Shown here piece by piece: positions 2,475 through 50,758 of a stretch of 64,000 bases of DNA. The stretch lies in NCBI GenBank assembly GCA_963811605.1, contig CAWESA010000010.1, positions 6,500-70,499 on the forward strand, given 5' to 3'. Each line of letters starts with the position of its first letter. Position 1 is the first letter of the stretch. Made by a program: the position numbers and the translations under genes. The notes beneath the pieces were generated by a model, which worked only from the letters and a program-made list of their open reading frames with translations, did no database searches and was not told the origin of the DNA. Origin of the DNA: an uncultured delta proteobacterium. GTDB taxonomy: Bacteria; Desulfobacterota; Binatia; DP-6.

Positions 2475-4385
2475 ATGATGCCCCTGACAATGCCCTGCCG
2501 TCTCGCGCTCCTCGCCACCGTCCTCGCTCCCGTGCTCGCCCCGCCGCCCGCTGCCGCCGTCGATCCGGGGTCGGAGCTGATCACCTGCGATCGTGCGGAC
2601 GAGCGGGTGGAGATCACCGCCAGCTCGCACCTCGATCCCGCCTGCACCTGGACGCGCGGGGTGGAGATCCTGGCCTCCAACGTGACGCTCGATTGCCAGG
2701 GTGCCCACATCGCGGCGCCGGATCGTCGCTACGGCGTGTACATCCACGCCCCCGCCGACACCCCGCTCACCAACATCACGGTGCGGAACTGCCACGTCGA
2801 GGGCTTCCTCAACAACTTCCACATCGAGCGCGAAGGCTTCCGCGAGCTCGCCGAGGGCGTGGAATACGACGACGGCTTCTCCGACATCACGATCGAGGAC
2901 AGCACCAGCCTCGACTCGCGCGGCGTCGGCATCTTCGTGAACGGCTACGTCGAGGGCGTCACGCTGCGGAACCTCCACGTCGAGGGCGCCGGCAGCACGG
3001 GCATCTACCTCGAGGCCGGGTCCAAGAACTGCGTCGTCGAGGACAGCACCATCGTGAGCAACGGCTTCGGCGAGAATAGCCCCGCGGGAAGGGTGTTCAC
3101 GTTCTCGGGCGTCGACTTCTGGGTCTGGGGCACCGGTCGCGAGGGACTCGCGATCGACGGGTCGCGCTTCAACATCGTCCGCAACAACACCTTCCAGGGC
3201 AATACCTTCGGCGGCATCTTCCTCTACAAGAACTGCGGCGAGTTCGTGACCCAGCGGCCGGAACGCTGGTTCCAGCGTCGCTACGGCGCCGACGGCAACG
3301 TGATCGAGCACAACACGTTCATCGACGAGGACAACGGCGTCTGGATCGCGTCGCGCATGAGCGAGAACACGCTGCCGATGGAGTGCAGCGACCCGCAGTA
3401 CCTGCCCGGCTACGCACTCGACTACGCCGACGACAACGTCGTCCGCGACAACCACTTCCAGAACGTCACATTCGGCGTGCGCGTCGAGGACGACCACGCG
3501 GTCGTGACCGACAACGAGTTCGCCAGCCCCGACGCGATCGACGAGGCCATCGTGGTCGGCACGCGGTACCGCACGCAAGCGCTCTCGCAGCCGGTCGACG
3601 GCACGGTCATCACCGGCAACACCGCCACCATCGCCGGCAGCCCGAACCCGTACCGCTGGATCTGGGGGCACAGCAACACCACGTTCAGCGACAACCAGAG
3701 CCTCGGCCGCACGGTGAGCCTGTGCGAGGGCGTGCAGCCGCCGGTCGGCCCCTTCGTCATGACGGTCGACCTCCAGGTCCTGGAGGACCCGAACGATCCA
3801 CCCGACGAGATCCGCGAGCTGCCGCTTCCCGCGGTGCTCCCTCCGTGCGCCAGCGCGTGCGAGACCGGCGGCCCGGTGTCGAAGCCGAGCCTGATCGTCA
3901 AGAAGCTCGACACGCCGCCCGGGGACGACACGCTGGCGTTCAAGGGCGAGCTGGTCGTTCCCCACCCGTTCGCGCCCGCGCTCGACCCGGTTGCCGCGGG
4001 TGTCGCGGTGGTGATCGAGGACGCCGCCGGCGCTCGCCCGCTCGACGTCACGGTCCCGGGCGGCGCGTACGACCCGCTGACCAAGGTGGGATGGCAGGCG
4101 GCGCGCAGCGGGACGAGCTGGAAGTACGTCGACAAGAGCGCGACGCCTCTCGGTGGAATCACCACGCTGACCCTCAAGGACGTGTCGAGGAAGCAGCCCG
4201 GCCTGCTCAAGGTGAAGGTCGCCGGCAAGCGCAGCTCCTATCCCGTCGACCCGGCGAGCCTCCCGCTCACCGGCTTCCTCATCCTCGACCCCCCGACCGC
4301 CGCCACCGGGCAGTGCGGCGTGGCGACGTTCGTCGGGCCGAAGCAGCGCTGCACGACGGACGGTCGGGCCGTCAAGTGTAAGTGA
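2475..4385 (+). CDS. Secreted right-handed parallel beta-helix (pectate-lyase/NosD-like) protein with a conserved ~150-aa C-terminal '...ATGQC...C' domain
   Basis: Signal peptide (MMPLTMPCRLALLATVLAPVLAPPPAAA). Repeated NxxxN/beta-helix turns (RNCHVEGF, RNLHVEGA, VEDSTIVSNG, RNNTFQGN, RDNHFQNV, TDNEFAS). The C-terminal domain is homologous to the C-terminus of the 48385..49539 protein. Confidence 0.8.
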   Translation: MMPLTMPCRLALLATVLAPVLAPPPAAAVDPGSELITCDRADERVEITASSHLDPACTWTRGVEILASNVTLDCQGAHIAAPDRRYGVYIHAPADTPLTNITVRNCHVEGFLNNFHIEREGFRELAEGVEYDDGFSDITIEDSTSLDSRGVGIFVNGYVEGVTLRNLHVEGAGSTGIYLEAGSKNCVVEDSTIVSNGFGENSPAGRVFTFSGVDFWVWGTGREGLAIDGSRFNIVRNNTFQGNTFGGIFLYKNCGEFVTQRPERWFQRRYGADGNVIEHNTFIDEDNGVWIASRMSENTLPMECSDPQYLPGYALDYADDNVVRDNHFQNVTFGVRVEDDHAVVTDNEFASPDAIDEAIVVGTRYRTQALSQPVDGTVITGNTATIAGSPNPYRWIWGHSNTTFSDNQSLGRTVSLCEGVQPPVGPFVMTVDLQVLEDPNDPPDEIRELPLPAVLPPCASACETGGPVSKPSLIVKKLDTPPGDDTLAFKGELVVPHPFAPALDPVAAGVAVVIEDAAGARPLDVTVPGGAYDPLTKVGWQAARSGTSWKYVDKSATPLGGITTLTLKDVSRKQPGLLKVKVAGKRSSYPVDPASLPLTGFLILDPPTAATGQCGVATFVGPKQRCTTDGRAVKCK

Positions 4386-10656: not shown

Positions 10657-10733
10657 CCGCTCGGCGCGCCGTCCGGGCTGGCGACGCCGCTTCGGGTTGA
10701 CGGACACCGTCCCCGACTCGTAGGCGTCCCGGA

Positions 10734-12632
10734 ATGCGGACCCTTCGCCTCGCTGCGTGTGTCGTCCCCTGCCTCCTGCCTTGCGCGGTGCTCGCTACCA
10801 CCGCGGGCGGCGGGCCGGCGGCCCAGGACTGCCAGCTCGAGCTCTCCACCCCCAAGCCGAACTATCCCATCTCGCTGCCCGGGAAGCCGCGCGTGGCCAA
10901 GGAGCTGCGCTGCTTCGACGGCGACGCCGGCTGCGACATCGACGGCGAGGTCAACGGCGCGTGCCAGTTCCCGCTCGATGCCTGCTTCCACGTGAGCGAT
11001 CCGGCGCTCCCGGAATGCACGCCGTCCGAGGTCACGAGCTTCGCCGTGAGCGGCGCCAACGGCAATGCCGATCTGCGCGCCCTCCAGCAGGCGGGCCAGG
11101 CGCTGCTGCCCGCATCGGCCAGCACGTGCACGACGGGGCAGTCCGTCCGCGTGGCGCTCCGCGGTCGTGGCAAGAAGGCGGCCCGTCGCACGGTGCGGCT
11201 GAAGGCCCGCGCCGGCAGCGGCACCGACGCCGACAAGGTGACGCTCACGTGCCTGCCGCACGAGTGGCCGAGCATCGGCTTCGATCAGCGCAACCGCCGC
11301 GCGACCCCGCTCGAGACCAAGCTGTCGCCCGCCAACGCCTCGCAGATCGAGATCCTGTGGGACTTCGACATCGCCGCCTACGAGGGCGCCGACAGCGCGC
11401 TGGTGAGCGCCACGCCGACGGTGGGCAACGGCATGGTCTTCGTGTCGTCCTGGAACGGGAAGGTCTACGGCCTGCGCGCCCGCAAAGGGAAGGTGAAGGT
11501 GCGCTGGTCGTACGACACCGGGACCGGGGCCGCCCTCGGCGTGCAGAGCACGCCGACCCTGACCCCCGAGGGCCGCCTGCTGGTCGGTGACAGCGCGGGC
11601 TTCGCGCACTGCCTCGACGCCAAGACCGGCACGCTCCTGTGGAAGGCGAACGTCGGCGAGACCGACCCGGCCGCGTCCCACATCTGGGGCGGGATCACGG
11701 TCGCCAACGGTCGCGCCTTCGTCGGGCGGGCCTCGCACACCGACCAGCCCTGCACGCAGGGCCACCTCTTCGCCTTCGATCTCGAGACCGGCGCCGAGCT
11801 CTGGCGCTACAAGACCGTGCCCGACCGCGTGTGCCGCAACGACACGCACGTCGAGTGCAGCAGCGACGCCGACTGCGGCGGCACGCCGTGCGTGCCCGGC
11901 GTCGGCGGCGGCGTGACCGCCACCGTGGCGGTCGACCCGTCGGGCGAGACGGTCTACATGGGCTCGGTCGGCTGCTACACCCAGCCGTCGATCGGCAACT
12001 CGGACGCGCTGTTCTCGCTCGACGCGGCCACCGGCACGGCGCACTGGATCCATCGCACCGAGTCGATCGAGCAGTACCACGACGCGACGCCCTTCTATCA
12101 CGACTTCGGCTTCCTCAACGGCCCGCTGCTGGTCGACGCGTCGGACGGCGCGGGCGGCACCCGCCGGCTCCTGCTCGGCCCCAGCAAGGACGGCACGGTC
12201 TATGCGGTGGATCCGGCGACGGGGGCGCTGGTCTGGAGCAGGTCGCTGGTGCCGAACGGCGCCTTCGCGGGCTTCGGCCTGTTCAACGCCGCCGCCGCCT
12301 GGGCCAACGACACCCTCTACACGTCGCTCTACCAGACCATCGTCCCGTCGTGGCCCGACGCCAACGACCACCTCTACGCCTTCGCCGGCGCCGACGGCGC
12401 GACGCGCTGGTCGGCCCAGATCGGCGCCAGCTGGAGCGCGGTCGCGATCGCCAACGGCCTGCTGTTCGTCGGGACGAACGAGCCCGCCGAGTACTACGTC
12501 TACGACGCGGCCAGCGGCGCGCGCCTGAAGACCTTCCAGATCCCCGGCCCGACCTACTCGGGCGCCGCGATCGTCGACGGCGTGGTCTACGTCGGCTACC
12601 CGGGCGGCGTGCTCGCGCTCGGGCTGCCCTGA
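10734..12632 (+). CDS. Secreted protein: N-terminal Cys-rich domain + PQQ-like beta-propeller repeats
   Basis: Signal peptide MRTLRLAACVVPCLLPCAVLA. Repeated ...G.LLW../..G.ELWRY.. blades (LDAKTGTLLWKANVGE, FDLETGAELWRYKT, VDPATGALVWSRSL, FAGADGATRWSAQIG) typical of PQQ/BamB-like propellers. Confidence 0.75.
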   Translation: MRTLRLAACVVPCLLPCAVLATTAGGGPAAQDCQLELSTPKPNYPISLPGKPRVAKELRCFDGDAGCDIDGEVNGACQFPLDACFHVSDPALPECTPSEVTSFAVSGANGNADLRALQQAGQALLPASASTCTTGQSVRVALRGRGKKAARRTVRLKARAGSGTDADKVTLTCLPHEWPSIGFDQRNRRATPLETKLSPANASQIEILWDFDIAAYEGADSALVSATPTVGNGMVFVSSWNGKVYGLRARKGKVKVRWSYDTGTGAALGVQSTPTLTPEGRLLVGDSAGFAHCLDAKTGTLLWKANVGETDPAASHIWGGITVANGRAFVGRASHTDQPCTQGHLFAFDLETGAELWRYKTVPDRVCRNDTHVECSSDADCGGTPCVPGVGGGVTATVAVDPSGETVYMGSVGCYTQPSIGNSDALFSLDAATGTAHWIHRTESIEQYHDATPFYHDFGFLNGPLLVDASDGAGGTRRLLLGPSKDGTVYAVDPATGALVWSRSLVPNGAFAGFGLFNAAAAWANDTLYTSLYQTIVPSWPDANDHLYAFAGADGATRWSAQIGASWSAVAIANGLLFVGTNEPAEYYVYDAASGARLKTFQIPGPTYSGAAIVDGVVYVGYPGGVLALGLP

Positions 12633-25425: not shown

Positions 25426-28400
25426 TTAGTCCAGGGGGGCTCCTCGACCGATCCAATCCTCGACCACACGGAATTTTGCACCACCCACTTCGAAGCCCTG
25501 CACCGTCCCGCCGCCGTGCGGCACGCGCCCCGAAGGCTTGAGGAGCAACAAGCTCGTGTCGGGTCGCGTCGGCGTCACCCGGATGCGCGCGGGTCCGTAC
25601 GCCTGTTCCGGCGTGCCGCCGAGGTCGAACCCGTTCGGCGGGGTCGGTCCGGTGTGGCAGCCGCGGCACACCTCGAGCTGGGGCGAGACATCGGCTCGAA
25701 AAGCCGATCTCACAGTTCCGGTCTGCCGCGCGAGTACTGACACGAACGTTCGATCCGTGCCGGCGGTACCGAGCGACGGATCGCGCACGGCGAATTCGAC
25801 GGTGTGGAAACCCAGGGTCGCAGGTGCCAGTCGCGCGACAGCGTGGTCCGCGTCCGACAGCATCGGGGGCGCGCCGGCGGGGAAGGACACGATCGTCGCG
25901 GAGTGCTGCGCATCGTCGGGGAGGTTGAGGCTGAAGGAGGTATCCAGCACCGCAATGTTCCCGACGTCGACTTCACGCGGCGCGCGGACGCGCGCGATGA
26001 CGCGCCCGGGCCTCAGCTCACGTCCGCATGTGAGCAGCTCGCCGCGGGACAGGAACGTCTCGCCGGCGGACGGTTCGAGCAGATACGCGTGCGTTCTATC
26101 CGTCAGCGACAGAACTCCGGCATACGATCGACTCCGATCCAGCACTCCCCACGCGCGCCCGCCGTCGAGGCTCCGAACCGGATTTGCGGTCGACGACGAG
26201 GCGTCGGCATAGAGTACTCCGGGAGTGAACGGATCGAATGCCAGCCGCGTGAACGGCGTGAGCAGGCGCCACGTCCCGCCGCGGTCGTCGCTCCGCCACG
26301 CGGCCCGCCCCTCGGCCGGATCGTTCGAGAGGCCTTGGACGATCAGCACCTTCTCGTCGTGCGGATCTACGATGATGTTGTCGAGCAGCGCCGCCGGCTG
26401 CGTCGGGAGTGGTGTCCAGTTTGCACAGTCGGTCGTCTCTTGCGGGACGCCGTCGACGATGCCGAAGACCGTCGGAGGCTGTCCGGGTACGACGGAAGCT
26501 GGCGTGACGGCCCGCACGTTCTGGGCACAGAACGTCCAGGTGCCCTCCAGGTGGTAGAGGTCATGCTGCCCTGCGGGATCGCTGTTCTCGCGCAGCACCA
26601 GGTAGACCTGGGCCGGGGGCAGGCCGTCGGCGCTGGGGCCTATCGCGAGTTGCTCGACGAACCGTGGGGCCGGGAGGCCTTCCTCGAAGTCCGTCGTCGA
26701 CCAGTTGTTGTTCGAGCTTCGAAGGACACGGTCCGGTGTCACCAGCGCATACTTCACACGCGTGTCGAGCGGATCGAATGCCAGGGCGAGCGGGACACCC
26801 GAGGTGGGAAACCGCGTCATCGGGTTGCCCCAGCTCGCGCTGCTGGCGCCTACCGTGATCTGCCGCGCCTGGAGCTGCCCGTCGACCAGTCCTGCGGCGA
26901 GGAGGTGGGCAGGATTCCCGGGTTCGGCGGCGGCCACGGACACCACCATGCCCTTCCCCGACGCACCGAGAGACTCCCACGTGAACTCTCCCGGAAGGAC
27001 ATCACCGATGGTGGAAGGTCCCGTGCTGGAGCTCGTCCAGAATCTCTCGAAGGTGCGTCGAGCGAGCGGCATCTGACCGTCCTCGCACACCAGCTGTCGG
27101 ACGCCATTCGAGAGGAGGCGGAACTGCTCGAGCGAGTTCAGGGGTAGCGCGGTCTGCGCATGGCATCCACGACAGCCGTGGCGGATGGCGTCGTAGAGCG
27201 ACGGATCTTGCAGCCACCCGTTTGGAACGAACGATGAATCGAACGTCGTCCTCGGTAGTCCCTGGCCGCCATACCATCCCTCGATCAGCTCTTTGATCGC
27301 GGCAGAAGGCTGGTAAAGGCGCTGATCCGCGTCGAGAACCGCACGATTCAGCTCCCTGAACTGCGACTCCTGCGCGGCACGGCTGAGGTCCGGTCGGGGG
27401 GAATAGTCGAACGAATCGAGGTCGAAGGGAATGAAGCGAGCGCCGAGATTGCCCCCGGAGGGTGCGTAGCCCCCGGCCGCACGCCCGCCGTGGCAGGGAG
27501 TGCATAGCTCGGGCTGGAACTTCACGCCGCGCCCGTCGAGATCTATGCAGTCGAGCCGCGCGCCGGCGACGCCGTAGGTGAAGAACTTGATGAAGGGCTG
27601 CGCACTCGGATCGTCATCCGGCGAAGACAGCTCCATGGCGACGGTAGCCAGCAACCCCTTCTTGAGCGGATCTAGAGCCGCATCCGCGCTGCAGTAGTTC
27701 TCCACGTAGAAGGCGATTCGATGATCGTCGTCACGGCGCATCGACATGCGCCGGCCAAATCCCAGATCGTTCGCATTGACGTAGATCGCCAATGCCTGTG
27801 GTGGCCCAAACCCGTTGACCGTCCTCCAACCGTCGAGCGTCGTGCGGAGGTGATAGGGGTCGACGACGTCGTAGTAGTCCCCGGCATCGGGCGCTGGCGG
27901 GAGATCGCGGAAGGCGAAGCTGAGGAAGGAGTGGGGATCGGGAGGCAGATCGTCCGGCGCGACGTGCCCGCAGAGCGACGGCATGGTCGTGGTGGTCGTC
28001 GAGGTCGTAGTGGTCGCGACCGTCGTGGTGGTGGTGGACGGCGCCGTCGACGTCGTGGAGGTCGTGGTGGGCACGACGGTGCTGGGCGACGGTGCCGTCG
28101 TCGTCGTGGTCGCCTTGATCGTGCTGGTCGACGGCGCGATCGTCGTCGTGGCGGGTACGATCGTAGTGGGCGACGCGTCCGTCGTCGTGGTGGGGCCGGC
28201 GATGGTCGTCTGAGTGGACACGCTGGTCGAGGTGGTGGGGCGGGACGTCGACGTACTCGTCGAGGTCGTGGCCGATGTCGGCGCGCTCGTCGTGGTCGTC
28301 GTCGGAGACACCTCGGACTGGAGAACGCAGCGACAGGCGACGCACGACGAGCCCGGAGGACAGGCCGCCAGACCGGGCTCCCCGCAGGTTTCGCCCGGGT

Positions 28401-28866
28401 CGGCGGTTCCGTTGCTGCACCCCGGCGCAGGTGCAGGGCACCGGCAGCCCGCATCGCATACGTCGCCTCCCGCACACTGTCGGCCTGGCGGATCGCACTC
28501 CTCGCCACGGACAGCCGTAACGATACCGTCCCCGCACCTCGAGTCGCACGCCATGCCCCCGTCGCTGCAGCAACTCTTGCAGTCCCCGGCGAATCTGCGG
28601 CACTGCGACTTGAGCGTCCGCAACACCCGCTGACGGCATGCCCTCCTCGCATCCGCGTTGCAGTCTCGAGATGCACGCTCCCTAGCCTGCGTGATGCACG
28701 CTCGGAGCGCGCTGCGGCAATTCCTGGCACACGGACCGGGCCTCGGCACCGCGGCGGCACGCGCCGCGATGCCGGCCAGCGCGACGGCCACCAAGCACGA
28801 GGCAATTCGTGACCCGCGTGAACTGGAGGTGGACAACCTTCGCTGCCCCGTGCGTGGCCGTGGCAT
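25426..28866 (-). CDS. Large secreted multidomain protein: signal peptide, myxo-type Cys-rich repeats, Thr/Ser-rich linker, three CxxCH (PSCyt-like heme-binding) motifs, BNR/Asp-box repeats
   Basis: Start proposed at ATG 28866 (MPRPRTGQRRL...CLVAVALAGIAARAAAV). N-terminal CGDGIVTAVRGEECDPPG repeat. A ~110-aa T/S/P linker. CTPCHGG, CRGCHAQ and CRGCHTG followed by ...SLLLLKPSGRVPHGGG, reminiscent of planctomycete cytochrome c domains. SDDRGGTW and SLDGGRAW Asp-boxes. Confidence 0.8.
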   Translation of the reverse strand: MPRPRTGQRRLSTSSSRGSRIASCLVAVALAGIAARAAAVPRPGPCARNCRSALRACITQARERASRDCNADARRACRQRVLRTLKSQCRRFAGDCKSCCSDGGMACDSRCGDGIVTAVRGEECDPPGRQCAGGDVCDAGCRCPAPAPGCSNGTADPGETCGEPGLAACPPGSSCVACRCVLQSEVSPTTTTTSAPTSATTSTSTSTSRPTTSTSVSTQTTIAGPTTTTDASPTTIVPATTTIAPSTSTIKATTTTTAPSPSTVVPTTTSTTSTAPSTTTTTVATTTTSTTTTTMPSLCGHVAPDDLPPDPHSFLSFAFRDLPPAPDAGDYYDVVDPYHLRTTLDGWRTVNGFGPPQALAIYVNANDLGFGRRMSMRRDDDHRIAFYVENYCSADAALDPLKKGLLATVAMELSSPDDDPSAQPFIKFFTYGVAGARLDCIDLDGRGVKFQPELCTPCHGGRAAGGYAPSGGNLGARFIPFDLDSFDYSPRPDLSRAAQESQFRELNRAVLDADQRLYQPSAAIKELIEGWYGGQGLPRTTFDSSFVPNGWLQDPSLYDAIRHGCRGCHAQTALPLNSLEQFRLLSNGVRQLVCEDGQMPLARRTFERFWTSSSTGPSTIGDVLPGEFTWESLGASGKGMVVSVAAAEPGNPAHLLAAGLVDGQLQARQITVGASSASWGNPMTRFPTSGVPLALAFDPLDTRVKYALVTPDRVLRSSNNNWSTTDFEEGLPAPRFVEQLAIGPSADGLPPAQVYLVLRENSDPAGQHDLYHLEGTWTFCAQNVRAVTPASVVPGQPPTVFGIVDGVPQETTDCANWTPLPTQPAALLDNIIVDPHDEKVLIVQGLSNDPAEGRAAWRSDDRGGTWRLLTPFTRLAFDPFTPGVLYADASSSTANPVRSLDGGRAWGVLDRSRSYAGVLSLTDRTHAYLLEPSAGETFLSRGELLTCGRELRPGRVIARVRAPREVDVGNIAVLDTSFSLNLPDDAQHSATIVSFPAGAPPMLSDADHAVARLAPATLGFHTVEFAVRDPSLGTAGTDRTFVSVLARQTGTVRSAFRADVSPQLEVCRGCHTGPTPPNGFDLGGTPEQAYGPARIRVTPTRPDTSLLLLKPSGRVPHGGGTVQGFEVGGAKFRVVEDWIGRGAPLD
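27960..28330. repeat. Low-complexity GTCGTG/GTGGTC-rich tract encoding the Thr/Ser-rich linker of the large secreted protein
   Basis: Visible as a run of gtcgtggtggtcgtcga... units. Slippage-prone. Confidence 0.6.
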
Positions 28867-29001
28867 GAGCGAGCGACCGTAACGCAGCTCGCCACGGATC
28901 GTCAAGGAAAATATGGATAGTCAATAAGATTCTCTTGAGCAGCGTATTGATTCCATGTGTTCACACTTGCTATTCACGTGCAAGCGCATTAGGACAGGCC
29001 C

Positions 29002-29799
29002 GTGACGAGGAACCGCAGTGTGCTCGAGGACACACGAGCCAGCTCCGAACGACGCCGCTGGGTGTCGGCGCGACGGTTGGCGGGGGTCGTTGCGCTGTTC
29101 ATGGCCGGCACGCTGGTCGGGCGCCCACCGGTCTTCGCATGCGAGCTGGACGGCGTCGTCGGCCCGGGAGAAGAGTGCGACGACGGAAACGACAACGACG
29201 TCGACTGCTGCCGCAACGACTGCACGGCCAACGTCGGCGCCCCGTGCGGGCCGGGCATCACGTGTGGTGCCGATCGATGCAACGCCGCCGGCACGTGCGA
29301 GCGAGTGGCGGCGAATCGCGGCGTGGTCTGCGGGCCGGCAAGCAGTACGTGCGACCCGCCACCTCGATGCGACGGCTCGGGCACGGGGTGCCCCGCGGCA
29401 AAGACGGACAAGTCCCTCTGCGCCTGGAGCATCAAGCCAGCCGGCGACCCGCTGAGGGAGGGGATCTCCGCCCTGTGCAGCGTGCCAGACAATCTGGGTA
29501 CGTCGTCCGGCGGGACTCGCCGTTCCGACTGCGTCTGTGTGGGCAAAGAGCAGGGCGGGGGCAAGCGGCTCACGGCACGCGTGGCTCCGCGGCTCGTGGA
29601 CAAGACGGAAAGCCCCGATGGACCGCGGAAGGAGAAGAGGTTCTTCCTTCGTCTCAACGCGCGAGGCCGGCGGCTCTTGAAGCAGGGCGGAACCCTCACC
29701 GTCGAAGTGAACGCGGTCATTCACCACGGGGATACGGAGAAGGGGTCGGAGCGCAGCCCCCTCAAGAAGTTGATCATGCTGCTGCTACGGAGCAGGTGA
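29002..29799 (+). CDS. Secreted cysteine-rich protein with myxobacterial Cys-rich repeat (TIGR02232-like)
   Basis: Signal peptide (ARRLAGVVALFMAGTLVGRPPVFA), then CELDGVVGPGEECDDGNDNDVDCCRNDC ... CDGSGTGCP. Lies in the lower-GC islet. Confidence 0.7.
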   Translation: MTRNRSVLEDTRASSERRRWVSARRLAGVVALFMAGTLVGRPPVFACELDGVVGPGEECDDGNDNDVDCCRNDCTANVGAPCGPGITCGADRCNAAGTCERVAANRGVVCGPASSTCDPPPRCDGSGTGCPAAKTDKSLCAWSIKPAGDPLREGISALCSVPDNLGTSSGGTRRSDCVCVGKEQGGGKRLTARVAPRLVDKTESPDGPRKEKRFFLRLNARGRRLLKQGGTLTVEVNAVIHHGDTEKGSERSPLKKLIMLLLRSR

Positions 29800-34815: not shown

Positions 34816-35582
34816 GACGGCCGGTCTCTGGCGACCCCGGCGTCGACGGCGCGCCACGCCGGCGCGCGCAGCAGCGCGCCGGCGGCCTCGGCGAGCCGGC
34901 GCTCGGCCTCGAATTGCTGGCGGCCCACGCGCAGCACGGCGGGCCAGCACCACGGCCGCAGCAGCAGTGCGCGCGCCGCCGCGGCGTAGGCGATCTCGCC
35001 CGTGTCGGCGTCGATGGCCTCGGCCAGGAACGGCAGCTCGTCGGCGTGCGCGTCGAGCACCACGCGCAGCGCCGTGAACGGCACGCGGCGGCGGGCGGCC
35101 TCGCAGGCGAGCGCCCAGCTCTCCATGTCGACCAGCACGGCGCCGCAGCCGGCTGCCGCGGTCTTCTCGGCGGTGGAGACGAGCACGCCGGGCGTCGAGG
35201 CGATCACGCCGCGCTGCGCGCCGACCTCGGCCGCGGGCACCAGCGCCGGCCGGCGCGCTTCGGGGCGACAGGCGCGGTCGAGGCTCACCACCTCGGTGGC
35301 GACCACGACGTCGCCCGTGCGCACCCACGGCACCAGGCCGCCGCCGCAGCCGAGCGACAGGAACGCCCGCGCGGGCGGGATCGTCGCGGCGATGCTGGCG
35401 GCGCGCGCGGGGCCGATGCCCACCTGCGTCAGCAGGCACGATCCGCCGTCGCCGAGCCGCCCGCGCCACTGGCGCGGCCGCTCCGTCGGCTGCACGTCGG
35501 CCAGCCCTCCCAGCACCGCCCGCGTCTCCCAGCCGAGCGCCGTGAAAGCCGCGACGTCGACCGCCGGCGGCTGGCCGGTCAC
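34812..35582 (-). CDS. Purine nucleoside phosphorylase/MTA-nucleosidase family protein (HpnG/MqnB-like)
   Basis: ...TQVGIGPARAASIAATI...FLSLGCGGGLVPWVRTGDVVVATEVVSLD...AVLVDMESWALACEAARRRVPFTALRVVLD. The GTG start at 35582 overlaps the WS/DGAT stop (GTGA). Confidence 0.7.
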   Translation of the reverse strand: MTGQPPAVDVAAFTALGWETRAVLGGLADVQPTERPRQWRGRLGDGGSCLLTQVGIGPARAASIAATIPPARAFLSLGCGGGLVPWVRTGDVVVATEVVSLDRACRPEARRPALVPAAEVGAQRGVIASTPGVLVSTAEKTAAAGCGAVLVDMESWALACEAARRRVPFTALRVVLDAHADELPFLAEAIDADTGEIAYAAAARALLLRPWCWPAVLRVGRQQFEAERRLAEAAGALLRAPAWRAVDAGVARDRPS

Positions 35583-37034
35583 GCCACCCGGCTCGGCGCC
35601 GATCGCCCGCGCCGCTGGCGCTCCGGCGCGACCCGCTGGATGGGCTGGCTCGCGGGGCGCACGCCGGCCAGGCCGCGCAGCTCGTCGTAGCTGTCGCGCA
35701 GGTACGTGACGAGGCGCGCGCCGTCGGTGATGAGGCCGGGATCGAGGTTGATGCCGATGGTGATCGAGTCGGCGTAGCTCAGGATGGCGAAGGCGAGCCC
35801 CACGGCCTGCGCGAGCGGCACGATGGGGATCATGCGGTCGAGCCGCCGTCCCTGGAAGTAGAGCGACACCGGCGGCCCCGGCACGTTGGTGACGACGGTG
35901 TTGACCGGCGTGCTCTGCACCCAGCCGAGCTGGTGCTGGAGCGGCGCCGGCACGTAGCTGAGCAGCTCCATGAGCCGCGTCATGCGCCGCGACTCGCCCG
36001 AGCGCTTCACCTGCTCCATCGCGGTGCGCACCTGGCGGAAGCGCTCGAGCGGGTCGAGGATGCCGACCGGGAGCGGCGCCATCATGGCCGACACGCGGTT
36101 GCCGAGGTGCAGGTGCTCGTCCTTCGTGCGCACGTTCACCGGGCACATGGCGCGCAGCTCGACGCGATCGGGGTTCCAGCCGCGGTCCTCCAGGTAGCGC
36201 CGCAGCGCGCCGGTGATGCTGGCGAGGATGACGTCGTTGACCGTGCCGCCGAGGCGGTTCTTCACCGCCTTCATCTCGTTGAGCGAGAAGGTGATCCACT
36301 CGATCCGGCGCTGCGAGCCGACGAAGCCGTTGAACGGCGTGTACGGCAGCGGCGCCAGGACCAGGCGCACCATGTCGGCCACCGCGCTCGCCAGCTCCTG
36401 CACCTCCTCCCACGCGCGCGCGGGCCGGCGCACCAGCTCGCGCAGCGCCCGTACGCCCTCCAGCGTGGCGGCGGCGCCGTCCGCCAGCGCGCGCCACGCC
36501 TGCTCCGACGGCGTCGGCGCCGGTGGCAGCGCGGTCGGCGCGGGGGCGGGCGGTGGAGGCGGCGGGTCGGGGGTGACGTCGAACATCACGCCGAGGAGCT
36601 GGACGCCGCTCACGCCGTCGATCATGGCGTGGTGCACCTTGGCGAGGATGGCGCTGCGGTCGCCGCGGTAGCCGTCGATCTGGTGCAGCTCCCACAGCGG
36701 CAGGCGGCGGTCGAGCGGCTCGGCGAACAGCCGGCTCGCCAGGCTGCGCAGCTGCTCGTCGTCGCCCGCGCCGCGCAGCCGGTGGCGCTTCACGTGCTGC
36801 CGGATGTCGAAGGCGCGCGCCGGCTCCCAGGTGGGATGGCCCAGGTTCAGCGGCACCGGCACCACGCGCTGCGTGTAGCGCGGGATCAAGATGCAGCCGG
36901 GCCTCGAGCTCGGCCAGCGTGCGCTCGTAGTCGAGCGGGCCGTCCGTGGTGTAGACGCCGCCGACGTGCAGCAGCTGGCCGGCGCGCTCGAGGTGAAAGA
37001 ACGCCGCGTCCAGCGCGGTCATGCGGTCGCCCAT
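35579..37034 (-). pseudogene. Wax ester synthase/diacylglycerol acyltransferase (WS/DGAT), one +1 frameshift near codon ~50
   Basis: N-terminus MGDRMTALDAAFFHLERAGQLLHVGGVY...LEARLHL in one frame. Continues IPRYTQRVVPVPLNLGHPTWEP...LPLWELHQIDG...KVHHAMIDGVSG (HHxxxDG active site) in the next frame (extra T near 36875). Confidence 0.8.
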
Positions 37035-37457: not shown

Positions 37458-37548
37458 CCATGTGGGCTAGCAGCGTGTCCGCGGATGCGCAAGCCACGTC
37501 GCGCCCCATCCGGGCAGATCGGCCCCGCACGCCGCCCGAGGTTGAGGA

Positions 37549-40143
37549 ATGCGCGCCGGCGTGCGACTCGGGGGAGCGCGCATGCCCCTCCTCCTCCTCG
37601 CCCGCCGCCAGCTCCGAAGCCATGCCGCCCGCGCCGCGCTCACCGCGGGCGGGATCGCCTGCGGCGTCGCCCTGGTGGTGGCGATCGAGGTCATCAACGC
37701 CAGCACCCTCGGCGCCTTCACCGACGCCATCGACGACCTCGCCGGCACGTCGGCGCTCCAGGTGCGCGGGCGCGGCAGCTTCTCCGAGGACGTCGCGGAC
37801 GCGGTGCGCAACGTGCGCGGCGTCGATCACGCCGTGCCCATCGTCACCGACACCTTCTTCATGGTCGACGGGCCGGCGGGCGGCGAGGCGCTGTCGGTGT
37901 TCGCGGCCGACGTCACCGACGGCCACGCCATCAAGACGCTGCGCCTGGTGCGCTCCGGCAAGCGCGTGGTGGACGACCCGCTGTCCTTCCTGGTCGATCC
38001 CGCCAGCATCATCCTGACCGACGTGTTCGCGCAGCGCATCGGCGCCACCCTCGGCAGCGAGCTGCGGCTGCGCACCCCGGGCGGCATCCGGACCTTCACC
38101 GTGCGCGGCATCCTGCCGCCGGGCGGCGTGGGACGCGCCTTCGGCGGCAACCTGCTGCTGATGGACGTCCTCGGCGCGCAGACCGTGCTCGGGCGCGAGC
38201 GCACCATCGACCAGGTCGACATCACCTTGAAGCCCGGCATCACCGTCGAGCAGGTCGAGCCGGCGATCCGCGCCCGGCTCCCCGCCGGCGTCGAGGCGCT
38301 CCAGCCGGCCCGGCGCGGCGAGCAGATCGAGCGCATCCTGAGCTCGTTCCGGACCCTGCTCTCGGGCATCTCCGGGCTGGCGCTCCTGTCGGCGATCTTC
38401 ATCGTGACCAGCGCCGTCTCGACCAGCATCGCGGCGCGCCGCCAGCAGATCGGGCTGCTCCGCTGCATCGGCGCGCAGCGGCGCCACGTGCTGCGGCTCG
38501 TGCTCGGCGAGGCGCTGCTGCTGGGCGTGCTCGGCACCGCGGCCGGCATCCCGCTCGGGCTCCTCCTCGCCCGTCTCCTGCTCGACACGGTCACCGAGTC
38601 GGCGGAGCTGGTGTTCTCGATCCGGCTCTTCACCTCCGCCATCGACGTCTCGCCCGCCGCCATCGCGCTCGGCGTCGTGGCCGGTCTCGGCGCCACGCTG
38701 GTCGCCGCCTGGCTGCCGGCGCGCACCGCCACCGCCATCTCGCCCATGACCGCCGTCCGCACGCCGGCGGCGGCGGCCGGCGGACGGCGCTGGCCGTCGC
38801 CCGGCATCGTGCTGATCGCGATCGCGGTGGCGCTGGCGGGCTTCCTGCTCCAGGTCCGCCTCGGCTCGGGCTGGGCCGGCAACGTCGCCGCCGTCGCCAC
38901 CGACATCGCGCTGGTGTGCGTGTTCATGCGCCTCGCCGGACGCCTCGCCGCCGTGGTGCTGGGGCCGCTGCGCGAGCGCGTCGGCTTCGCCGGCCGCATG
39001 GCCGTCGACCGGCTGGCCCGCATCCCGGACCAGCTCGCGCTCGCCGGCGGCGTGCTCGCCCTGGGACTGGGGCTGATGCTGATGGCGGGGACGCTGTCGC
39101 GCAGCTTCGAGGAGTCGGTGCTCGACTTCATCCGCCACCAGGTGCGCGCCGACCTGGTGGTGGCGTCGACCGCCAGCACGGGCTGGATCGAGTCGCCGCT
39201 GCCGGAATCGATCGGCGAACGGCTCGCCGCCCTGCCCGGCGTCACGCGCGTCGAGCGCGTGCGGCTGGCCGAGCACGACTTCCGTGGCCAGCGCATCAGC
39301 GTCGACTCGCTCGACGCGAGCGCGTTCGCGCCCGAGCGCACCGGCGACTTCGTCTTCTCGACCGGCGACCCGGCGGCCGCGCTCGCCGCCGTGCGTGGCG
39401 GCGACGCGGTGCTGGTGTCGCGCAACTTCGCGCGCCAGTTCGCCGTCGGCGTCGGCGACCGGCTCGCGATCGACACGCCGACCGGTCCCTGGAATCCCAC
39501 CGTCGCCGGCGTCGTGGTCGACTACGTCTCGCCGCGCGGCAGCATCGTCACCACGCGCGACGTGTGGACGCGCCGCTGGGGGGACCACGCCGTCAACCGC
39601 TTCCACGTCTCGCTCGCGCCGGGCGTCGATCTGGATGCGGTCCGGCACGCCATCGCCGCCGACGTCGGGCGCGACGAGGGGCTCAAGGTGCTGACCCAGC
39701 GCGAGCTGTACGCCTACCACCAGGACGCGGTGCGGCGGTCGTTCCGCTTCACGCACGCGCTCGAGGTGCTGCCGCTCCTGGTCGCGGCGCTGGGGCTGGC
39801 CGAGGCGCTCCTGGCCGTCGCGCTCGACCGCCGGCGCGAGCTGGCGCTGCTGCGCGCCGCCGGCACCACGCGGCGCCAGATCGCGCGCAGCGTGGTGGCC
39901 GAGGCCGCCGGCGTGGGCGCGCTCGGCTTCATCGGCGGCCTCGCCATGGGGCTCGTGCTGTCCGTCCTCTGGGTGCGGGTCAACTTCGCCTACCAGCTCG
40001 GCTGGGACATCGACTTCTACCTCGCGCTGGGCAGCGTCCCCGTCGCCGCGCTCGCCGCCGCCCTGGTGAGCGTGCCGGCGGCCCTGCTCCCGGCGCGCCA
40101 CATCGCTCGCCTGCCCGTCCTCGAGGCCTTGCGCGACGAGTGA
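37549..40143 (+). CDS. ABC transporter permease with two FtsX domains (MacB/YbbP-type)
   Basis: 864 aa. Two blocks of 4 TM helices, each preceded by a large extracytoplasmic domain. No ATPase gene adjacent. Confidence 0.85.
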   Translation: MRAGVRLGGARMPLLLLARRQLRSHAARAALTAGGIACGVALVVAIEVINASTLGAFTDAIDDLAGTSALQVRGRGSFSEDVADAVRNVRGVDHAVPIVTDTFFMVDGPAGGEALSVFAADVTDGHAIKTLRLVRSGKRVVDDPLSFLVDPASIILTDVFAQRIGATLGSELRLRTPGGIRTFTVRGILPPGGVGRAFGGNLLLMDVLGAQTVLGRERTIDQVDITLKPGITVEQVEPAIRARLPAGVEALQPARRGEQIERILSSFRTLLSGISGLALLSAIFIVTSAVSTSIAARRQQIGLLRCIGAQRRHVLRLVLGEALLLGVLGTAAGIPLGLLLARLLLDTVTESAELVFSIRLFTSAIDVSPAAIALGVVAGLGATLVAAWLPARTATAISPMTAVRTPAAAAGGRRWPSPGIVLIAIAVALAGFLLQVRLGSGWAGNVAAVATDIALVCVFMRLAGRLAAVVLGPLRERVGFAGRMAVDRLARIPDQLALAGGVLALGLGLMLMAGTLSRSFEESVLDFIRHQVRADLVVASTASTGWIESPLPESIGERLAALPGVTRVERVRLAEHDFRGQRISVDSLDASAFAPERTGDFVFSTGDPAAALAAVRGGDAVLVSRNFARQFAVGVGDRLAIDTPTGPWNPTVAGVVVDYVSPRGSIVTTRDVWTRRWGDHAVNRFHVSLAPGVDLDAVRHAIAADVGRDEGLKVLTQRELYAYHQDAVRRSFRFTHALEVLPLLVAALGLAEALLAVALDRRRELALLRAAGTTRRQIARSVVAEAAGVGALGFIGGLAMGLVLSVLWVRVNFAYQLGWDIDFYLALGSVPVAALAAALVSVPAALLPARHIARLPVLEALRDE

Positions 40144-46280: not shown

Positions 46281-46388
46281 GGAGGGAGCGTCCCATGCAG
46301 TCGCCGCAGCGGGTGATCGACCGGACGCGCGCGCGTGAGTCTCCGCACACGCTTGCGTGCGCTGGTCTCGACTAGTAGATGCTAGCGC

Positions 46389-46613
46389 ATGTCCACCGCC
46401 CAGATTGCGGTTCGCCTCGACGGTCGCCTCAAGCGCGCGGTCGATGCGGCCTCCCGCCATCGCGGCGTGAGCCTGACCCGGTTCGTCCAGGATGCCCTGC
46501 TGGACAAGCTCGAGGAGATCGCCGACGCGGAGGACATCCAGCGGCTGCGGCGCGAGCCGACCCGTCCCCTGCGCCAGCTGATCCGCGACCTCGGGCTGGA
46601 TGGCGAAGTATAG
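46389..46613 (+). CDS. Type II antitoxin (RHH/ParD-RelB-like)
   Basis: 74 aa, MSTAQIAVRLDGRLKRAVDAASRHRGVSLTRFVQDAL... Overlaps the downstream toxin gene by 14 nt. Confidence 0.8.
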   Translation: MSTAQIAVRLDGRLKRAVDAASRHRGVSLTRFVQDALLDKLEEIADAEDIQRLRREPTRPLRQLIRDLGLDGEV

Positions 46614-46860
46614 GATCGACGTCTCGGCGACCGCCGAGCGTCAGATCCGCAGGCTGCCGCGCACCGACCAGGCCCGGATCCTGCGTGCCGTGGTCGCGCT
46701 CTCGACCGCGCCGCGGCCGCCCGGCTGCCGCACGCTCTCGGGCCACGACGACGTGTTCCGGATCCGCATCGGCCGCTATCGCGTGCTCTATGCGATCGAG
46801 GATCGGCGGCTGGTGATCCTCGTGCTCAAGGTGGGCGACCGGAAGGACGTGTACCGCTGA
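46600..46860 (+). CDS. RelE/ParE family type II toxin
   Basis: 86 aa, ...AERQIRRLPRTDQARILRAVVAL...FRIRIGRYRVLYAIEDRRLVILVLKVGDRKDVYR family signature. Confidence 0.85.
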   Translation: MAKYRIDVSATAERQIRRLPRTDQARILRAVVALSTAPRPPGCRTLSGHDDVFRIRIGRYRVLYAIEDRRLVILVLKVGDRKDVYR

Positions 46861-48384: not shown

Positions 48385-49539
48385 ATGCTAGGTAGAAGGG
48401 TGTCAGATCGCGCGGCTCGTGGTGTCGGTGGTGTCCGCGGCCTCGGCCAGGTCGCGACGGCGGCGCTGCTGGTCATCGCCCTGGCGACGCCGGCGCGCGC
48501 GCTGGTGTGCGGCGACGGCATCCTCGACGCGGGCGAGCAATGCGACACCGGCAGCCTGATCGGCACCGGCTGCTGCCTCGTCGGATGCCTCCTGGCCCCC
48601 CTCGGGCTCGAGTGCCGCCCGGCGCAAGGCGCGTGCGACCTGCCCGAGATGTGCGACGGCATCCTGCCCATCTGCCCGACCAACGTCTTCAAGGCCGCCG
48701 GGGTGTGCCGTCCCGCCAAGGGGCCGTGCGACGTGGCAGAGACGTGCAGCGGGGTCGGTCCCGCCTGCCCCGCCGACAGCCTGGCCCCGCCCAGCACCAC
48801 GTGCCGGCCGGCGGTCACCGCCTGCGACCAGCCCGAGCTGTGCACCGGCGTCTCCGTCGACTGCCCGGCCGACACCGGCGAGCCGGACGGGGACGGCGAC
48901 GGGACGTGCGACCGCGAGGACCTCTGCCCGCTGGTTGCCGATGCGAACCAGGCGGACGCGGACGGCGACGGCGTCGGCGACGCCTGCGATCCCTGCACCA
49001 ACGCCGACAACAACCAGATCGACGGACCGCGCCTCGGGCTCGCCAAGCTCTCCGCCCCGGCCGACGACGATCGCATCAAGCTGAAGGCGACGATGTCGAT
49101 CCCGCTCGAGCCCACCATCGATCCAGTCGCGAAGGGCATGCGCCTCGTGCTCACCGGCCCGTTCGGCCCGGTGTTCGACGCCATCATCCCGCCCGGCTCG
49201 TTCGACACCGACAGCCGTGCCGGCTGGAAGCAGGACGGGGACAACCGCTGGTGGTACAAGAACACCGGCGACGAGGTCGCCCGCGTCGCCGGCATCCGGC
49301 GGCTCACCCTGCGCCAGCGCAGCGCCGACTCGAACGACTTCCGCATCGTCATCGCCGGCCGTGGCGCCGACATGCGCGCGGCGGTGGGCCAGCCGACGCT
49401 CACGCTGTCGATCGTGGTCGATTCGCCGCTCGCCACCACGGGCCAGTGCGCCGAGGTCACCTTCGTCACCCAGGGCGACTCGAGCGATTGCCGCCTCCTG
49501 AACGGCGGCCGTCGGCTCGACTGCCGGCAGAAGCGTTGA
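48385..49539 (+). CDS. Secreted protein: myxo Cys-rich repeats + thrombospondin type-3-like Ca-binding repeats + conserved C-terminal '...ATTGQC...C' domain
   Basis: Signal peptide. CRPAQGACDLPEMCDGILPICP / CRPAKGPCDVAETCSGVGPACP / CRPAVTACDQPELCTGVSVDCP repeats. DGDGDGTCDREDLCPLVADANQADADGDGVGDACDPC. The C-terminal 150 aa aligns with the C-terminus of the 2475..4385 protein. Confidence 0.8.
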   Translation: MLGRRVSDRAARGVGGVRGLGQVATAALLVIALATPARALVCGDGILDAGEQCDTGSLIGTGCCLVGCLLAPLGLECRPAQGACDLPEMCDGILPICPTNVFKAAGVCRPAKGPCDVAETCSGVGPACPADSLAPPSTTCRPAVTACDQPELCTGVSVDCPADTGEPDGDGDGTCDREDLCPLVADANQADADGDGVGDACDPCTNADNNQIDGPRLGLAKLSAPADDDRIKLKATMSIPLEPTIDPVAKGMRLVLTGPFGPVFDAIIPPGSFDTDSRAGWKQDGDNRWWYKNTGDEVARVAGIRRLTLRQRSADSNDFRIVIAGRGADMRAAVGQPTLTLSIVVDSPLATTGQCAEVTFVTQGDSSDCRLLNGGRRLDCRQKR

Positions 49540-49579: not shown

Positions 49580-50758
49580 ATGAAGCTGTCGTCCCGTGCC
49601 GTGCTGAGCCTCGCCGCCCTGGCACTCGCCTCGCCCGCCGCCGCGCACCACCGGCAGACCGATCCGGTCGTCGTGCTGACGCTGTCGGGCGACACGCCCC
49701 TGCCCCGTCTCTCCGCACCGGGGAACAAGACGCTCGCCCTCGCCGTCCAGTTCGGCGCCGGCCGCCGCATCGTCTCGCTGTCGCCGTGGCGCGATCGCAA
49801 GAACCCGGCCCTCCAGACGGTCATCGCCGAGTCGGGCAATCACGACAATCCGTCCGTCTCGGTCTCGGGGCGCGCGTTCTCGTACGACTCCGGCAGCGAT
49901 CCCCTGGCCACCGGGCTGCCCGGCCGGCAGGTGATCGGCGTGCAGCGGGTGACGTCGTTCCCCGTCTCCAACGATCCCTCCGGCACCAGCGTCAACCCGT
50001 CCATCGACAGCACCGGCAACGTGATCGCGTTCGAGTCCACGGGCGACCTCGCCGGAATGGGCGTGCCCGGGGTGCGGCAGGTCTACGTCCGGGACCGTGA
50101 CGGGAGCGTCCGCCAGCTCAGCATGGGCCTCGGGACGAGCCAGCACCCGGTCGTGAGCGCGAAGCGTCGCGTCGTCCTGTTCGAGTCGAGCAGCGAGCCG
50201 ACCACCGGCGTCGACACCGGCGTCGCACAGATCTGGCTGGGCGACATCGAGCGCGGCGGCGCGCTGCCGATCACGGCCGGATTCGGCCCCAGCCGCAACC
50301 CCGCCATCAGCAACGACGGCCGCATCGTGGCCTTCGAGAGCACCGCCGACCTGGCCGGCACGCAGGCCGACACGGGGGTGCCGCAGGTCTTCATGTACGA
50401 CACGAAGAGCAGGACGTACGCTCGCATCACCAACCAGCCGGGCGGCTGCACGCTGCCGTCGTCGTTCAAGGTGCAGCGCGACTGGCGTGTCGCCTACGTG
50501 TGCAGCGGACAGCCGTACTTCACCATGCTGCGCGCGAACCAGCGCTACGTGGTGCCGGCGTCCGACGGCGTCACCCAGCGGGTGGTCACCGAGCTCGGCA
50601 TCCACTTCCTGGTCCTCAGCACGACGGCCGATCTCCTGGCCGGCAGCGGGACCACGCCCGGCAACCAGGTCTATCTCGTGAACCTCTTCAAGCGGCCGGC
50701 GGTTCCGGTCGCCGGCAGCATCATGTGGTTCCCGAGCCAGGGCCTGCCGCCGCTGTAG
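49580..50758 (+). CDS. Secreted TolB-like (PD40/WD40-like) beta-propeller repeat protein
   Basis: Signal peptide MKLSSRAVLSLAALALASPAAA. Repeated ..NPSIDSTGNVIAFES / HPVVSAKRRVVLFES / NPAISNDGRIVAFES PD40 motifs. Confidence 0.75.
   Translation: MKLSSRAVLSLAALALASPAAAHHRQTDPVVVLTLSGDTPLPRLSAPGNKTLALAVQFGAGRRIVSLSPWRDRKNPALQTVIAESGNHDNPSVSVSGRAFSYDSGSDPLATGLPGRQVIGVQRVTSFPVSNDPSGTSVNPSIDSTGNVIAFESTGDLAGMGVPGVRQVYVRDRDGSVRQLSMGLGTSQHPVVSAKRRVVLFESSSEPTTGVDTGVAQIWLGDIERGGALPITAGFGPSRNPAISNDGRIVAFESTADLAGTQADTGVPQVFMYDTKSRTYARITNQPGGCTLPSSFKVQRDWRVAYVCSGQPYFTMLRANQRYVVPASDGVTQRVVTELGIHFLVLSTTADLLAGSGTTPGNQVYLVNLFKRPAVPVAGSIMWFPSQGLPPL

Follow-up and report, generated by a model that had tools for sequence, protein, structure and literature searches.

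A C-terminal module of about 180 residues closes two otherwise different secreted proteins, named protein A and protein B, in the window studied here, a stretch of 64,000 nucleotides (64 kb, G+C content 72%) from an uncultured member of the Binatia. The module apparently represents an uncatalogued, Binatota-centred C-terminal domain family of more than 2,000 protein clusters. We tentatively read it, with a probability of roughly 45%, as a lineage-specific surface-targeting domain that would anchor or sort the proteins carrying it, a reading drawn from their sequences. The observation itself is real, and the initial annotation, which had noticed the module, was essentially right; its function is what we infer.

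Architecture of the two carrier proteins

The protein B gene (48385..49539, + strand) encodes 384 residues composed of a signal peptide, a Cys-rich stalk, a thrombospondin type 3 (TSP3)-like unit and the C-terminal module. The public protein collection holds an identical product, and orthologues were found (P0001–P0006 and P0023). The + frame is the coding one, with a GC3 of 0.91 (0.91–0.94 for the protein A and protein B genes together), and the long antisense ORFs lying over both carrier genes are the usual shadows of high-GC DNA. The predicted Sec signal peptide (48385..48501, +, residues 1–39), read from the sequence, has ...ATPARA before its end and LV after it, and the hydrophobic N-terminal segment is kept in the orthologue P0023.

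The mature protein starts with one DUF4215/TIGR02232-like Cys unit (CGDGILDAGEQCD...CC..C; 48505..48588, +), which is weakly recognized: PF13948 aligns with residues 41–64 at E=0.072 and 13.8 bits, below its Pfam cutoff of 27, and the TIGR02232 model gave no NCBIfam match to protein B at E<=1. Units of this type are significant in 7 of 66 carriers (best 6e-26). Three disintegrin-like Cys-rich repeats of the form CRPxxGxCDxxExCxGxxxxCPxD follow (48613..48873, +, residues 77–163), matched in three stretches by the Disintegrin model PF00200 (E=3.1e-15, 57.2 bits, above the Pfam gathering cutoff of 35.1). Because these alignments cover only model positions 28–75, the C-terminal half, the stalk is made up of a repeated disintegrin-like sub-motif and not of a full disintegrin domain. 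The initial annotation had described three TIGR02232-like repeats; the Cys-rich repeats are disintegrin-like, and only the single weak unit upstream resembles TIGR02232.

The stalk is followed by an Asp-rich TSP3-like unit of the calcium-binding type (48880..48996, +, residues 166–204), ending in ...GDACDPC. A TSP3 nature is indicated by a local match of NF047638 (throspo3_MtsC, NCBIfam) to residues 168–218 at E=3.2e-9 and by clear units in relatives (8 of 66 carriers, best 1e-13), but the likeness is weak in protein B itself, where PF02412 (Pfam) gives E=0.32. The MYXO-CTERM TSP3 proteins (MtsC, NF047638) also have TSP3-type repeats just before a C-terminal sorting element. The analogy is positional only: the whole-protein NF047638 score of the carrier is 36 against a cutoff of 350 bits, and MYXO-CTERM consists of a short Cys motif, a transmembrane helix and a basic tail, whereas the module is a 180-residue beta domain of soluble type without a hydrophobic helix. 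None of the NCBIfam sorting-signal models (MYXO-CTERM, PEP-CTERM, LPXTG, GlyGly-CTERM) matched the module.

Protein A (gene 2475..4385, +) has 636 residues, with a signal peptide, a NosD-like right-handed beta-helix (PF13229 8.5e-18 and PF05048 2.2e-17 in Pfam) and the module; unlike protein B, it carries neither a Cys-rich nor a TSP3 stalk. It is 100% identical to P0170, and the same 636-residue product is held in the public protein collection. Its homologues number 752. They were looked through for passengers that close with a known sorting signal, but the best 120 are close relatives, nearly all about 630 residues long, and apparently module-bearing orthologues.

Copy A of the module (3846..4382, +) runs from C458 to K636 and ends in ...VKCK, and copy B (48994..49536, +), a basic all-beta domain with four conserved Cys, runs from C204 to R384 and ends in ...DCRQKR. 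Residues 212–381 of protein B align with residues 468–636 of protein A at 29% identity and 44% positives over 174 residues (BLASTP, E=6e-15), in agreement with the claim that two different secreted proteins have one C-terminal module in common. Searched against the 559 six-frame ORFs of the window, the module HMM retrieved the two carrier ORFs at 1e-74 and 1e-85, well outside chance, with the next best at E=0.1; the window thus contains exactly the two carriers that had been counted in it, and no third copy. At the DNA level, modules A and B are 53% identical over 489 aligned bases, as low as had been anticipated, and are therefore old paralogues; a recent local duplication, which would leave near-identical DNA, is ruled out by this value. 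The homology between the two copies begins at nucleotide 49018 (I212). However, a Cys further upstream, C204, lies about 10 residues before the first strand and is conserved in 146 of the 149 family members with enough upstream sequence, which places the true start of module B at about 48994. The earlier placement at 49060..49539 covered most of the module, but its start lies some 40–66 nt further upstream.

Other secreted Cys-rich proteins of the window lack the module. One, of 1,159 residues (25426..28905, - strand), has DUF4215-like CGDG...EECD units, a Thr/Ser/Pro-rich linker made of tandem repeats (27984..28197) and three CxxCH motifs (CTPCHGG, CRGCHAQ and CRGCHTG) that could bind haem. 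Another, a 268-residue signal-peptide protein (28993..29796, +), combines DUF4215/disintegrin-like Cys units (PF00200 E=8e-4, below threshold) with a Lys/Arg-rich C-terminal half.

Conservation, charge and predicted fold of the module

The module is single-copy in 168 of 169 retrieved carriers, and its HMM envelope ends at the last residue in 148 of these members and at most three residues from the end in 19 more. The C-termini read ...GxxLxC[K/R], without a hydrophobic stretch: 144 of the 163 complete tails have a single residue after the last Cys, which is Lys in 76 and Arg in 49 (125 K/R). In an alignment of 163 members, three Cys are invariant, and little or no variation is seen at W281 and at several Gly, Pro and Asp positions; Y291 and F360 are highly conserved, and conserved Asp residues (GDD, D265) are found in loops. 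With C204 this makes four conserved Cys, which probably form two disulfides, and the pattern fits an extracytoplasmic, disulfide-bonded domain. A free reactive thiol arising from an odd Cys count is ruled out by the fourth Cys. A C3-like CGEQ thioester was rejected as well, the conserved core being only GQC and the window copies lacking GE. An autotransporter or outer-membrane beta-barrel domain was likewise discarded, given the lack of a Pfam match, the basic character, the four conserved Cys and a terminal Lys or Arg in place of an aromatic residue.

In at least half of the 163 members, a TSP3-type DxDxDxxGDACDPC motif immediately precedes the module and contributes, as its last Cys, the fourth conserved one. 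Such a fusion is what would be seen if the module capped the stalk of Cys-rich and TSP3 repeats or served in its assembly, possibly also in oligomerization, like the C-terminal globe of animal thrombospondin. In that protein, the calcium-loaded type-3 repeats wrap round a C-terminal lectin-like globe. By analogy, the order of Cys-rich repeats, TSP3 unit and terminal beta domain, with a Cys linking TSP3 to the module, would parallel the thrombospondin signature domain (PF02412 + PF05735), and the basic module could neutralize the acidic stalk. However, the Binatota module also occurs without a TSP3 unit: protein A and its 752 relatives carry it with neither a TSP3 nor a disintegrin-like stalk, and since this lineage is stalk-less, the module functions without a stalk. 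In addition, the TSP_C model PF05735 gave no Pfam match at E<=10, and no thrombospondin chain is among the top 50 Foldseek PDB matches of either structural model. We consider a capping role very unlikely.

The module is strongly basic, with a median pI of 9.55 and a median net charge of +7 (quartiles +4 to +9), while the passenger part of the same proteins has a median pI of 4.07. Copy B has a pI of 9.21 and a net charge of +4 versus -23 for the mature N-terminal part of its protein; copy A has a pI of 9.43 and a net charge of +7 versus -37 for its passenger. In non-carrier ORFs of the carrier loci, the final 170 residues have a median net charge of -1, which differs from that of the carriers (Mann-Whitney p=2e-7) in a small control set of 24 carriers against 122 ORFs. 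That a basic module consistently goes with an acidic passenger suggests that the anchoring is electrostatic, by non-covalent attachment to an anionic component of the envelope. The Listeria GW modules and the SLH domains are C-terminal basic modules that hold secreted proteins via anionic envelope polymers. Their likeness to the Binatota module is a functional analogy, in which binding by the module would follow from its charge alone; they differ from it in belonging to Gram-positive bacteria, in usually occurring as tandem copies and in having unrelated folds. The basic module could instead pair with the acidic stalk, in the same or another molecule.

AlphaFold2 models of copy B (pLDDT 87.2, pTM 0.84) and copy A (pLDDT 88.9, pTM 0.86) are both all-beta, with 13 strands over about 170–185 residues, in the same order in the two copies. 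Compared with the PDB by Foldseek, neither model gave anything below E=0.03 or with a TM above 0.36, and the module profile run against all PDB sequences returned chance matches only (E>=0.16). As modelled, the module thus apparently adopts a new fold, without a detectable solved relative. The most conserved motif, D.P.A.TGQC, falls in the least confident part of both models (residues 151–160, pLDDT 68–69), a region that is probably exposed, as judged from the models.

Family size, passengers and genomic neighbourhood

A profile built from 16 sequences, run against 1.84 billion representative proteins, retrieved 2,107 members at E<=1e-3, 1,554 at 1e-10 and 451 at 1e-30. Pfam-A and NCBIfam gave no match, even at E<=10, to 10 module sequences (both window copies and eight members), and we found no description of the module in the literature on secreted proteins of Binatia/Binatota or on DUF4215/TIGR02232. 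Species-representative genomes were scanned with a narrow two-peptide-pattern search built from an A-type sub-alignment, which yielded 43 loci; this design makes the per-genome carrier counts lower bounds. Most of these loci belong to metagenome-assembled genomes (MAGs) labelled Candidatus Binatia or, under an older label, Deltaproteobacteria, and a few are on short contigs labelled Myxococcales, Gemmatimonadota or Thermodesulfobacteriota. The closest module relatives of the window copies (77–85% identity) come from MAGs labelled Binatia or, in one case, delta proteobacterium, from which the window most likely belongs to a Binatia genome. Several Binatia MAGs have at least 3–5 carriers per genome, dispersed or in tandem, so that the sizeable family suspected by the initial annotation from two carriers in 64 kb is supported by the cluster number and by the related genomes in which carriers were counted.

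Some carriers stand together in twos or threes, head-to-tail in L011 (3..7638), L013 (1..7104) and L023 (989..6510) and on opposite strands in L018 (2791..11729). Upstream stalk motifs recur several times per protein in these clustered carriers, which suggests local family expansion.

A signal-peptide-like N-terminus is present in 58 of 70 full-length carriers, with a lipobox in only one, and disintegrin-like repeats in 38 of 66. The passenger is often joined to the module via disintegrin-like Cys repeats and a TSP3 unit. The passengers comprise DUF5122, BNR/sortilin and NHL propellers and beta-helices; enzymes, namely PETase-like, chlorophyllase-like and other alpha/beta hydrolases, GDSL lipase and purple acid phosphatase; and binding domains, namely B-type and C-type lectins (B_lectin, Lectin_C), Laminin_G_3 and CBM96. 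Such wide diversity is the range of cargo that sorting or anchor domains typically carry.

The many hydrolases among the passengers would also suit a ligand-binding, lectin- or CBM-like domain that targets the proteins to a common external substrate, such as a polysaccharide or a mineral, and not to their own envelope. As predicted, the module is all-beta and of CBM-like size; the invariant W281, the conserved Y291 and F360 and the loop Asp residues could, from the alignment, bind calcium or sugar; and the weak, non-significant top Foldseek matches include CBM9 (E~0.1, TM 0.24). However, CBMs sit at either end of a protein, internally and in tandem, whereas the module is single and strictly terminal in about 99% of carriers. 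Several carriers already have a CBM96, B_lectin, Laminin_G_3 or Lectin_C domain of their own, many of the passengers are propellers without enzymatic activity or, like protein B, consist purely of Cys repeats, and the Pfam, NCBIfam and Foldseek comparisons gave no significant match to a CBM in sequence or fold. We consider such a ligand-binding role unlikely.

In the window, the protein B gene is followed, 40 bp downstream, by a PD40/TolB-like beta-propeller gene (49580..50758, +, 392 residues with a signal peptide). The adjacent gene does encode the secreted beta-propeller that had been recognized there (PF07676 4.3e-9, TIGR02800 7.9e-8), and the module HMM did not find the module in it. The order protein B, PD40, GNAT, AMP-binding (acyl-CoA synthetase) is kept in an orthologous metagenome contig (L044), so that the neighbourhood of protein B and PD40 is ordinary synteny. 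The initial annotation had also proposed to look for an enrichment of carriers near secretion or sorting genes. Here the result is negative: none lies near either window carrier, whose neighbours are an ECF sigma factor, QueC-like, methyltransferase, Dus, NamZ, a ParE toxin pair, GNAT and the acyl-CoA synthetase, and ORF clustering of the 43 loci revealed no recurrent non-carrier neighbour family save antisense shadow ORFs and one Cys-rich secreted family, found beside carriers in 7 of the 43 (for example L030, 6449..8500).

Several other features of the window were recorded. The PQQ-propeller protein encoded at 10701..12629 has a Cys-rich N-terminal region (10734..11333) without a Pfam match. 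This region shares homology (35% identity, E=1e-12) with the N-terminal part of the Cys-rich secreted family of the 7 Binatia loci; from its sequence, it may be a second uncurated Binatia secreted-protein module. The toxin pair consists of overlapping genes directly upstream of NamZ (46386..46857, +), encoding a DUF6290-like putative antitoxin (E=2e-4) and a ParE-family toxin (E=4e-9). A MacB/FtsX-type ABC permease of 865 residues (37546..40140, +) adjoins a WS/DGAT wax-ester synthase (35582..37018, - strand); this pair, adjacent to neither carrier, represents the sole envelope-transport-related genes seen in the window.

A close parallel in shape and distribution would be the C-terminal domain (CTD) of type IX secretion system (T9SS) substrates in Bacteroidota (Por_Secre_tail, PF18962/TIGR04183), a folded terminal beta domain that is present once per protein on diverse Sec-exported cargo, with many dispersed carriers. 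The module could accordingly be a secretion signal of this kind, recognized in its folded state in the periplasm by a putative Binatota outer-membrane translocon and then cleaved off, the new C-terminus possibly being attached covalently to a surface glycan. The strict C-terminal position, single copy, Sec signal peptides, cargo diversity and dispersed carriers would all agree with this, and the D.P.A.TGQC motif, if exposed as the models indicate, could be a recognition or processing site. However, T9SS CTDs are seven-stranded Ig-like beta-sandwiches of 70–100 residues, whereas the Binatota module, at about 180 residues and 13 strands, is twice their size and differs further in its four conserved Cys, its strong basicity and its ending in C[K/R]. 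PF18962, TIGR04183 and TIGR04131 did not match any of the 10 module sequences, both window copies included, in Pfam and NCBIfam searches at E<=10, and Foldseek detected no similarity to solved CTDs. T9SS machinery genes (PorV, PorU, Sov and others) were not seen in the 64-kb window, and no candidate machinery gene recurs beside carriers in the 43 loci. A T9SS-CTD-like signal thus seems to us improbable.

Proposed role of the module

Our preferred reading remains that of a Binatota surface-targeting domain. The carriers would be exported by Sec through their N-terminal type-I signal peptide; the all-beta module would then fold in the oxidizing envelope, with two disulfides formed from its four conserved Cys; and, being basic, it would hold the acidic passenger at the envelope or matrix via an anionic component, such as LPS, an exopolysaccharide or an outer-membrane partner. 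In carriers such as protein B, the passenger may be set off from the anchor by a rigid stalk consisting of the disintegrin-like Cys repeats together with the TSP3 unit of calcium-binding type. The disulfides, the binding partner, the surface location and the stalk role are all inferred elements of this scheme.

What points to surface targeting, and not to a binding module that can be placed anywhere, is that the copies are terminal, single, disulfide-bearing and dispersed, on diverse Sec-exported carriers. Moreover, with several carriers per genome and no conserved partner gene, the arrangement is like that of the substrates of a genome-wide sorting or anchoring system. The module also takes the place that the MYXO-CTERM signal has in surface proteins with TSP3 repeats, a likeness of position alone. 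Against the anchor reading, we count that neither the window nor the 43 related loci yielded a candidate for a receptor, a translocon or a processing enzyme, and that it offers no explanation of how a periplasmic intermediate crosses the outer membrane. By analogy with other bacteria, in which NosD-like beta-helix and TolB-like folds are periplasmic, the carriers might never leave the periplasm. The module could also be the cargo tag of an undescribed Binatota-specific sorting pathway, with an outer-membrane translocon and/or a processing enzyme of its own, analogous to the T9SS but unrelated to it; we judge such a pathway rather unlikely.

Binatota are abundant, uncultured soil and sediment bacteria that are known only from MAGs. 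The module would add a sizeable domain family, apparently with a new fold, to the catalogues, and the size and diversity of this family make it well suited to phylogenetic profiling and structure determination. If a dedicated machinery exists, the module would indicate that diderm bacteria have a new mechanism of surface display or sorting, and if the cargo-tag pathway is true, all that this uncultured soil phylum secretes or displays at its surface would be defined by the module. As a terminal tag on more than 2,000 protein clusters, it would make it possible to list from sequence the exported hydrolases (PETase-like, lipase, phosphatase), lectins and adhesin-like proteins of the Binatota.
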